Below the pieces are notes generated by a model, which was given only the letters and a program-made list of their open reading frames with translations, was not told the origin of the DNA and made no database searches. From the NCBI RefSeq assembly GCF_058153355.1, contig NZ_CM177019.1: a stretch of 64,000 nt of DNA. The stretch is one strand, 5' to 3'. Position numbers and translations under genes: made by a program. Within the stretch, counting starts at the first letter, position 1. The number at the start of each line of letters is the position of its first letter. Shown piece by piece: positions 1,268 to 2,844 of this stretch.

Positions 1268-1731
1268 GCAGAGTCGCCGCGATTATTTATGCTCTGGTTA
1301 TCTGCATCATCGTCTGCCTGTCATTGGCTGTTAATCATTACCGTGATAACGCAATCGCCTACAAAGAGCAGCGCGATAACAAGGCCAGTGAACTGGAGAA
1401 GGCGAACGCCACCATTACTGACATGCAGCAGCGCCAGCGTGATGCTGATGCACTCGATGCTAAATACACGAAGGAGTTAGCTGATGCGAAAGCTGAAAAT
1501 GATGCTCTTCGGCGCAAGCTTGATAATGGTGGCAGGGTGCTCGTCAAAGGAAAATGTCCTGTGCCATCCTCAGCCGAAACCTCCAGCGCCTCCGGCATGG
1601 GCAATGATGCCACCGTCGAACTCTCTCCAGTTGCTGGACGAAACGTTCTCGGTATCCGGGACGGAATCATCAGAGACCAGACAGCACTGAGAACGCTTCA
1701 GGAATACATCAAGACGCAATGCCTGAATTAA
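1264..1731 (+). CDS. Rz-like inner-membrane spanin (i-spanin)
   Basis: GTG at 1264 overlaps the endolysin stop; N-terminal TM segment then charged coiled-coil region; typical position after endolysin. Confidence 0.65.
1484..1690 (+). CDS. Rz1-like outer-membrane lipoprotein spanin (o-spanin), nested in Rz in another frame
   Basis: 68-aa ORF wholly inside Rz; signal peptide with lipobox-like MVAGC followed by proline-rich sequence. Confidence 0.65.
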
Positions 1732-1772
1732 TCCCTCTGTATCAAAAACGAACTCAATTTGTTGGATAGTGA

Positions 1773-2099
1773 ATGAAAATTTATATTGCCGGGCCAATGA
1801 CGGGATATGAGAACTTTAATCGTGACGCCTTTAATAAAGAGGCAGATCGTTTGTCACGACATGGTCACTCTGTCTTGAATCCAGCCACTTTGCCTAATGG
1901 TCTGACACAACGTGAATACATGGATATTTGCTTTGCAATGCTTCGTTGTGCGGATGCTATTTTGATAACTCAATGTCTGATCCCTTTTCCCGGCTGGCAG
2001 CGCGTATGGATGCGATCACGGTCAGAAAGATGGGAAAGATGGCCTCGATTAATGATGTTTATATGCCTGTGCTCCCGGGAGAAACTCTGGCAGAGCTGA
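1773..2099 (+). CDS. DUF4406-like (nucleoside 2-deoxyribosyltransferase-like) phage protein; C-terminal third looks aberrant
   Basis: N-terminus MKIYIAGPMTG...NPA resembles DUF4406; after about residue 65 the frame overlaps the FII-like gene and becomes W/R-rich. Confidence 0.3.
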   Translation: MKIYIAGPMTGYENFNRDAFNKEADRLSRHGHSVLNPATLPNGLTQREYMDICFAMLRCADAILITQCLIPFPGWQRVWMRSRSERWERWPRLMMFICLCSREKLWQS

Positions 2100-2248
2100 A
2101 CGCTCTGTCCGGACCGGCGGTCTCTCTGGTGGTGTTTTCTTCGGGATACCGCCCACGGCGCGGGGACCGCGTTGTTTATGACGGACAACAATGGACGGTC
2201 ACACGGCATGAACGCTTTAACGGTAAACCAATGATCTTTATTGAGTAA
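1973..2248 (+). CDS. head-tail joining protein, FII-like
   Basis: ATG at 1973; C-terminal RRGD..V..G..W.V motif and N-terminus resemble lambda FII; directly precedes Z. Confidence 0.5.
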   Translation: MSDPFSRLAARMDAITVRKMGKMASINDVYMPVLPGETLAELNALSGPAVSLVVFSSGYRPRRGDRVVYDGQQWTVTRHERFNGKPMIFIE

Positions 2249-2259
2249 AGAGGTGTGGG

Positions 2260-2844
2260 ATGAAGGGGCTTGAGAATGCCATCCGTAATCTGAACAGCCT
2301 TGATACCCGTATGGTACCGCAGGCCAGCGCATGGGCGATAAACCGTGTGGCTGCAAAGATTATTTCTGTCGCCACACGGCAGGTTGCGCAGAATACCGTT
2401 GCCGGGGATAACCAGGTGAAAGGTATTCCCCTGAAAACGGTCAGGGAGCGTGTCAGGCTGCTTAAAGCCAGCCCCTCAGGAAAAATGTATGCCCGCATGC
2501 GTGTTAACCGGGGTAACCTGCCCGCCATTAAGCTGGGGACAGCCCGGGTCAGACTGGCCCGCTCCCGGCATGGCAGCAACTCACGTCATCGTGGCAGCGT
2601 ACTGAAAGTGGGGAAATACCTTTTCCGGGATGCGTTTATTCAGCAACTGGCGAATGGTCGCTGGCATGTGATGCGGCGTATTGACGGCAAAAATCGTTAC
2701 CCCATTGATGTGGTGAAAATTCCGCTGTCCGGAGCGCTGACACAGGCGTTTGAAGATGCCCGCGACCGCATCATTGCTGCGGAAATGCCGAAACAGCTGG
2801 GGTATGCCCTGAAACAACAACTGAGGTTACATCTGAGTAAATGA
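2260..2844 (+). CDS. Z: minor tail protein Z
   Basis: 194-aa product colinear with lambda gpZ (MKGLE.A..NL, GRWHVMRR, RYPIDVVKIP, LGYAL). Confidence 0.8.
   Translation: MKGLENAIRNLNSLDTRMVPQASAWAINRVAAKIISVATRQVAQNTVAGDNQVKGIPLKTVRERVRLLKASPSGKMYARMRVNRGNLPAIKLGTARVRLARSRHGSNSRHRGSVLKVGKYLFRDAFIQQLANGRWHVMRRIDGKNRYPIDVVKIPLSGALTQAFEDARDRIIAAEMPKQLGYALKQQLRLHLSK

Follow-up and report, generated by a model that had tools for sequence, protein, structure and literature searches.

How did the lysis genes of a lambdoid prophage come to lie directly beside its FII-like and tail genes, with no head module in between? The question arises from the first 22 kb of the 64,000-nt stretch of contig NZ_CM177019.1 (assembly GCF_058153355.1) analyzed here, hereafter called the window; this part is the late half of a lambdoid prophage and begins just past the holin gene. 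The original prediction, made from the sequence alone, stated that the head module is missing between Rz and the FII-like gene, and that only approximately 240 bp and a DUF4406-like open reading frame (ORF) separate the two genes. The distance from the Rz stop at 1731 to the FII-like ATG at 1973 was 241 nt, and 7,371 bp of head and packaging DNA found in L004, an intact-order prophage of Escherichia coli FDAARGOS_944 (NZ_CP065613, 5,002,240-5,044,205), were absent. We consider it highly probable (approximately 0.92) that a single homology-free deletion of ~7.4 kb took place within an integrated lambdoid prophage. The event would be an illegitimate deletion in a mEp460/cdtI-type prophage carrying ipaH between yecE and yecD. 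It would extend from codon 65 of the DUF4406 gene behind Rz to a point 6 nt before the start of the FII-like gene, and would have taken out cos, both terminase subunits, the gpW-like adaptor, the portal, the protease/major-capsid fusion, and the DUF2190 decoration gene.

Megablast compared the window with 5,426 complete E. coli genomes and 50,697 phage records. Gene families were assigned by Pfam, NCBIfam, and PHROGs profile matches. Positions 1-1966 corresponded to L004 20001-21966 with 97.97% identity and no gaps, and positions 1967-13120 to L004 29338-40505 with 96.3% identity. Both flanks are collinear and in the same orientation in L004 across a single breakpoint, and the 7,371 bp that the window lacks lie between them. 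The gene order on both sides is also the same in L004 and the window: holin, a 209-amino-acid (aa) ORF, lysozyme, Rz, and DUF4406 on the left, and FII-like, Z, U, V, G, T, H, M, L, K, I, J, and lom on the right. L004 differs in that it keeps the head and packaging block, resides at another chromosomal site, and has another early region. Every tail-side match, in phages and in E. coli, began at window position 1967, and every DUF4406-side match ended at 1966; the homology to L004 and to PhiR46_1 on the DUF4406 side stops there. Neither blastn nor tblastn found the deleted segment, the terminase, the portal, or DUF2190 at any position of the 64-kb window.

The cos and small-terminase region of the phages mEp460 and cdtI identifies what the window has lost. 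We placed cosN at approximately L004 22445, 479 bp to the right of the point where the missing block begins, by a match to the start of the phage cdtI record (GGGCGGGAGCG). This record opens with GGGCGGGAGCGTCGCGG, which resembles the left end of lambda, GGGCGGCGACCT. The mEp460 record begins at the small-terminase ATG and was, hence, unsuitable for this purpose. Rz, DUF4406, cos, and the small terminase are also contiguous in a second complete genome, NCCP 15734.

Breakpoint sequences were compared between the window and both breakpoints of L004, and also with PhiR46_1 and mEp460. At the breakpoint, the left parent reads TATTTTGAT then GCTTCC, while the right parent reads CCGGTAA then AACTCAATG. 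Relative to the L004 breakpoints, the junction showed 0 nt of microhomology and no filler bases. No insertion sequence (IS) element or IS end was present at the junction, where the parental flanks meet directly at 1966 and 1967. The original prediction had named alignment with intact prophages as the means of locating the breakpoint, and IS remnants or microhomology as traces to be looked for; the alignment placed the breakpoint at 1966/1967, and neither trace was found at the blunt join. No direct repeat was in register at both breakpoints, and the closest shared 6-mers were out of register. An 8-nt near-repeat (GCGGATGC / GCAGATGC) and an 11-nt near-repeat (TTCCTGGCTGG / TTCCCGGCTGG) were rejected as causes of the deletion because both are out of register with the junction.

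The DUF4406-like ORF itself records the join. It had been predicted to be a fusion across a deletion junction, with an end that overlaps FII in another frame and is rich in tryptophan and arginine, and each of these points was borne out. In the alignment to L004, the break falls within the ORF; residues 1-64 are identical to the intact L004 DUF4406 protein and the rest is unrelated. Residues 1-65 match positions 1-65 of the 91 positions of the DUF4406 profile (Pfam, E 1.9e-21). Over its final 127 nt, the ORF shares DNA with the FII-like gene but is read in another frame (1773 mod 3 = 0, 1973 mod 3 = 2), and its 43-residue tail contains 7 arginines and 5 tryptophans. An exact look-up of the 108-aa ORF in a public gene-position collection returned no called gene; therefore, gene callers evidently do not call it. 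The ORF is probably a non-functional by-product of the join.

The junction is not confined to the window. Its 31-mer, GATGCTATTTTGATAACTCAATGTCTGATCC, was found in the NCBI assembly GCA_043012465.1 and in three Logan assemblies (SRR28786219, SRR31441161, and SRR8656992), all of which were located by an exact look-up of the window Z protein. These four assemblies are 99.94-100% identical to the window over 7.2-8.8 kb. On the NCBI contig, host genes (torZ, cmoAB, and yecE), early region, junction, and tail genes follow one another without a break. Scans with the 31-mer of IMG/VR and of GTDB species representatives gave no match. Since the junction is present in four independent assemblies, with an uninterrupted contig in one of them, an assembly artefact can be dismissed. 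The junction is a real, heritable feature that marks a clonal lineage.

The FII-like gene had been assigned to the tail genes in the original prediction, and this assignment probably does not hold. The 91-aa product is homologous to a protein of the Gifsy-2 prophage with a solved structure (PDB 2PP6, E 6.7e-18), and its ortholog in phage mEp460_4F5 (LR595868) is annotated as 'Hc1 head closure protein'. The gene occupies the position of gpFII, between the head genes and the Z-like Ne1 gene; Lopes et al. placed lambda gpFII in class Hc1, gpZ in Ne1, and gpU in Tc1 (PMC4362835). No direct sequence match of the 91-aa protein to lambda gpFII was obtained, and a single-sequence AlphaFold2 model was too poor for a fold comparison (pLDDT 49.5). 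By homology, position, and class, the protein is best regarded as a putative head-completion (Hc1) protein orphaned by the deletion, and not as a tail protein. The coding sequences of L004 (DUF2190, 29028-29351; FII-like, 29344-29619), mapped onto the window by alignment, show that no more than 6 nt of the original DNA upstream of the FII-like gene are left. The gene would have lost the translational coupling to DUF2190 that depends on the native ATGTCTGA overlap. No Shine-Dalgarno motif was found in the new upstream sequence. Since this coupling appears to be lost and a Shine-Dalgarno sequence is lacking, the FII-like gene is probably poorly translated.

The prophage sits between yecE and yecD. 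On the NCBI contig, its left side reads torY, torZ, cmoB, cmoA, yecN, and yecE, followed by int and an xis-like gene; the early region comes next, with cI-like repressors, cro, Rha and antirepressor genes, replication genes, DnaB, NinH, Q, and the holin. On the right side, within the window, lom is followed by two tail-fibre cassettes, DUF4376, ipaH, and the DinI-like gene, and then by the host genes yecD, aspS, nudB, yebC, and ruvC. Host genes at both ends and a frameshifted integrase gene at the left end fit an integrated element. The late-gene order fits a lambdoid prophage with a head-tail module of the mEp460/cdtI type, in which the packaging and head block is the sole missing part, and the nucleotide identity to mEp460, cdtI, and E. 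coli prophages was 91.5-98%. The prophage is ~38.6 kb long; the addition of 7.4 kb gives ~46 kb, versus 44.5 kb for mEp460 and 47 kb for cdtI.

Because cos lies inside the missing interval, we infer that the deletion occurred in the prophage state, after integration. From the gene content that remains, the element would no longer be packageable, even by a helper phage acting in trans. A single late transcription unit is now predicted to run from the lysis genes into the neck and tail genes. A scan of positions 1-4200 for promoters and terminators gave matches at the chance level only, with nothing convincing between Rz and the FII-like gene.

Further lesions were found in the same element. The stop at 6842 in the tape-measure gene H was present only in the window and in SRR31441161, while three sister assemblies have C at 6842 and an intact H of 1013 aa. 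The frame change in J was demonstrated by tblastn of the intact J of L003, the ipaH-bearing prophage at the yecD/aspS site of FDAARGOS_944 (453,108-486,441), and the Pfam domains of J are divided between two ORFs. The J split is common to two other assemblies of the lineage, one of which has an intact H. The int gene, at the left prophage end outside the window, was frameshifted in both lineage assemblies checked (L020 12150-13490, L021 8546-9854), and the frameshift separates the arm-binding domain from the catalytic domain. Because the integrase is split in this manner, the prophage is probably also unable to excise.

Among the alternatives, illegitimate recombination between two co-resident lambdoid prophages, one L004-like and the other L003-like, by a rearrangement or the transfer of a patch, is the likeliest, although we regard it as very unlikely. 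The best match to the left flank (98.0%) and the prophage at the yecD site, L003, are two different prophages of FDAARGOS_944, and the replication genes of the lineage resemble those of L003, while the tRNA-to-Rz region resembles that of L004. However, L004 by itself contains the two flanks, equally oriented and separated by 7.4 kb, and a single prophage, therefore, suffices. Mosaic early and lysis modules are the rule among lambdoid phages, and the mixture of L003-like and L004-like segments is ordinary lambdoid mosaicism. Furthermore, the host genes to the left (torYZ, cmoAB, yecN, and yecE) and to the right (yecD, aspS, nudB, yebC, and ruvC) keep the order found in E. coli and, thus, show no sign of a chromosomal rearrangement.

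A further, very improbable alternative is that the order is functional. F-type tailocin loci consist of flexible lambda-like tail genes and a lysis cassette with no head genes. In the prophage, the ORFs of the lysis cassette and most of the tail ORFs lie side by side and undamaged, an architecture similar to that of these loci. The head-less element could be kept as a working unit that provides lambda-type tails and lysis after SOS induction, as a tailocin-like weapon or a tail donor for capsid-forming satellites, but we consider this very improbable. Were it true, selection would account for a deletion that starts just past the lysis genes and stops just short of the neck and tail genes, and sub-lineages with an intact H could be partially functional. 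It is even less probable that the arrangement is the natural one of a functional phage or satellite, which has no head genes of its own or has them elsewhere, and was selected as a tail-and-lysis element of the tailocin or tail-donor kind. The DUF4406 gene breaks off in the middle of its domain and continues into FII in the wrong frame, and a putative head-closure gene is still present as an orphan. In contrast to F-type tailocin loci, no sign of domestication was found: the early region is full, and a complete set of intact tail genes is not present, with J frameshifted, also in the two other assemblies examined, and a nonsense codon in H of the window strain. Among the E. coli genomes and phage records searched, no record spanned both sides of the Rz-to-FII junction, and the same order was found in no intact relative; intact relatives with this order were what the original prediction had named as speaking against a deletion.

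A collapsed or chimeric contig that joins two prophage fragments is the least credible explanation, for although genomes of this group carry several near-identical lambdoid prophages, with up to 12 matching places per genome, and such repeats often break or mis-join short-read assemblies, the identical junction with unique flanks recurs in four independently assembled data sets and one NCBI contig is continuous across it.

Several points weigh against the deletion as we describe it. The comparators are 96-98% identical relatives and not the direct ancestor; the breakpoint may, thus, shift by a base or two, and the true ancestor could have had 1-2 nt of microhomology there. The ancestor was a mosaic, with different closest relatives for its left flank and its replication genes, and it was not found in an intact form. 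The search for head genes covered the 64-kb window, and the genome may contain other prophages with head genes outside it. Nevertheless, a single deletion within one integrated prophage remains the reading that we favor, and the junction is a lineage-specific deletion scar in a multiply defective prophage, an ordinary biological event.

Comparisons with known systems place the element among defective lambdoid prophages. From the FII-like gene to V, mEp460 and cdtI are 91.5-93% identical to the window with the same gene order. Both are lambdoid siphoviruses with packaging and head genes of the Gifsy-2/HK97-like type; they differ from the prophage in being viable, with complete head modules, other accessory genes behind Rz, and no ipaH. 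The ipaH prophages at the yecD/aspS site of enteroinvasive E. coli (EIEC), for example, in FDAARGOS_944 (L003) and CFSAN029787, share the insertion site, the cargo at the right end (tail fibre, DUF4376, ipaHd, and dinI), and related replication genes. In contrast to the window prophage, they keep the head module, though it is frameshifted, have KilA-N instead of DUF4406 behind Rz, and lack the fibre cassette at 14287-17282. The cryptic prophages DLP12, Qin, and Rac of E. coli K-12 are grounded lambdoid remnants that have kept the lysis cassette while morphogenetic genes were deleted. They have lost most structural and often early genes, commonly with IS elements, whereas the prophage in the window shows one clean deletion and ~38.6 kb of DNA left.

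The features of the locus are summarized in Table 1. The 209-aa ORF between the holin and the lysozyme matched no Pfam or NCBIfam family, and its position is kept in several E. coli prophages, including L004. At the right end, the two-cassette region gave Pfam matches to phage_tail_N (twice), Caudo_TAP, and DUF4376, and window 14325-17602, the region of the extra first cassette, has no counterpart in L003. The order ipaHd, dinI, yecD, and aspS is the same in FDAARGOS_944. To judge by its ipaH cargo, the window would come from Shigella or EIEC; a stretch of its chromosomal flank (window 40000-46000) reached no more than 99.4% identity to E. coli.

Two further observations concern cargo and neighboring DNA. 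The early region of the same prophage, outside the window, contains a gene pair with Pfam matches to TumE and HVO_A0114 (L009 5372-6020) and, separately, a ParE-like ORF; these are possible toxin-antitoxin or defence cargo. Beyond the prophage, ~1.7 kb of extra DNA (window 27463-29150) lies between yebB and ruvA and contains two ORFs on the + strand, at 27318-28256 (312 aa) and 28384-28989 (201 aa), neither of which matched a Pfam or NCBIfam family. An IS element was rejected as its identity because neither a transposase nor any other family was matched. Only 19 of the 5,426 complete E. coli genomes carry the segment, and there the two ORFs are labelled hypothetical proteins. The segment resembles a small, rarely found island without an assigned function.

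Table 1. Features of the prophage late region, the junction, and the block that is present in L004 and missing from the window.
Feature	Position in window	Strand	Remarks
209-aa ORF	39-668	+	Between holin (just upstream of window) and lysozyme; PHROG 1085, unknown function, E 4e-74
Endolysin (phage lysozyme)	734-1267	+	Intact; PF00959, E 1e-24; annotated lysozyme in L004
Rz i-spanin	1264-1731	+	155 aa, GTG start; PF03245, E 3e-29; called as 155-aa gene in lineage assemblies
Rz1 o-spanin	1484-1690		Embedded in Rz; PF06085, E 2e-21
Retained 5' part of DUF4406 gene	1773-1966	+	Codons 1-64 of 103; left deletion edge
108-aa fusion ORF	1773-2099	+	DUF4406 codons 1-64, junction codon, 43 codons out of frame in FII-like gene
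Deletion junction	1966/1967		TATTTTGAT then AACTCAATG, blunt
Last 14 nt of deleted DUF2190 gene	1967-1980	+	TGA stop 1978-1980 overlaps FII-like ATG (ATGTCTGA)
FII-position putative head-closure (Hc1) gene	1973-2248	+	91 aa, intact; PF13856 Gifsy-2, E 2e-16; PHROG 153
Z	2260-2844	+	Pfam Minor_tail_Z, intact ORF
U	2841-3242	+	Pfam Phage_tail_U, intact ORF
V	3253-3993	+	Pfam Phage_TTP_12, intact ORF
G	4034-4438	+	Pfam Phage_TAC_2, intact ORF
T	4447-4776	+	Phage_tail_T on gene call in sister assembly, intact ORF
H (tape measure)	4748-7789	+	Nonsense codon 6842-6844 (C to T at 6842); ORFs split at 6844 and 6959
M, L, K, I (tail tip)	7789-10104	+	ORFs; Pfam labels on identical genes in lineage assemblies
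J (tip attachment)	10165-13562	+	Frameshift ~12966-12978; 948-aa ORF and separate 167-aa receptor-binding-domain ORF (13059-13562)
lom	13629-14228	+	Pfam Ail_Lom
Tail-fibre cassette 1	14287-17282	+	815-aa fibre gene (phage_tail_N and fibre repeats), 181-aa tail-fibre assembly gene
Tail-fibre cassette 2	17306-19292	+	Tandem to cassette 1
ipaH	19472-21223	-	Type III secretion system E3 ubiquitin ligase effector, 583 aa, intact; Pfam LRR_TTSS and NEL
DinI-like gene	21824-22072	-	Pfam DinI
yecD (host)	22427-22993		Pfam Isochorismatase
Missing block, L004: 3' end of DUF4406			Last 118 nt
Missing block, L004: intergenic region			546 bp, contains cohesive-end site
Missing block, L004: small terminase			DUF1441
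Missing block, L004: large terminase			
Missing block, L004: 70-aa gene			gpW-like adaptor; PHROG 'head-tail adaptor'
Missing block, L004: portal			
Missing block, L004: ClpP-protease/major-capsid fusion			
Missing block, L004: DUF2190 gene			Except last 14 nt; PHROG 'head decoration'

The prophage is a previously undocumented example of a well-known feature, namely, a grounded lambdoid prophage that decays by deletion and point mutation. It is of the same kind as the cryptic prophages of K-12 and the ipaH-associated phage remnants of Shigella and EIEC. For annotation, the prophage is to be described as defective, without cos, packaging, and head genes and with int and J as pseudogenes, and the 108-aa ORF is not to be labelled as a DUF4406 protein. 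The 31-nt junction GATGCTATTTTGATAACTCAATGTCTGATCC, which is absent from the complete E. coli genomes, serves as a specific marker of the lineage. The clean deletion, free of homology and of IS elements, occurred in a genome group for which the usual assumption is loss mediated by IS elements. The deletion and the frameshifts in int and J may jointly represent a continuing decay by which the ipaH cargo becomes fixed in the chromosome. The ipaH effector would then no longer be mobilisable by its own phage, and one more virulence cargo would be fixed in chromosomes of the Shigella/EIEC type.

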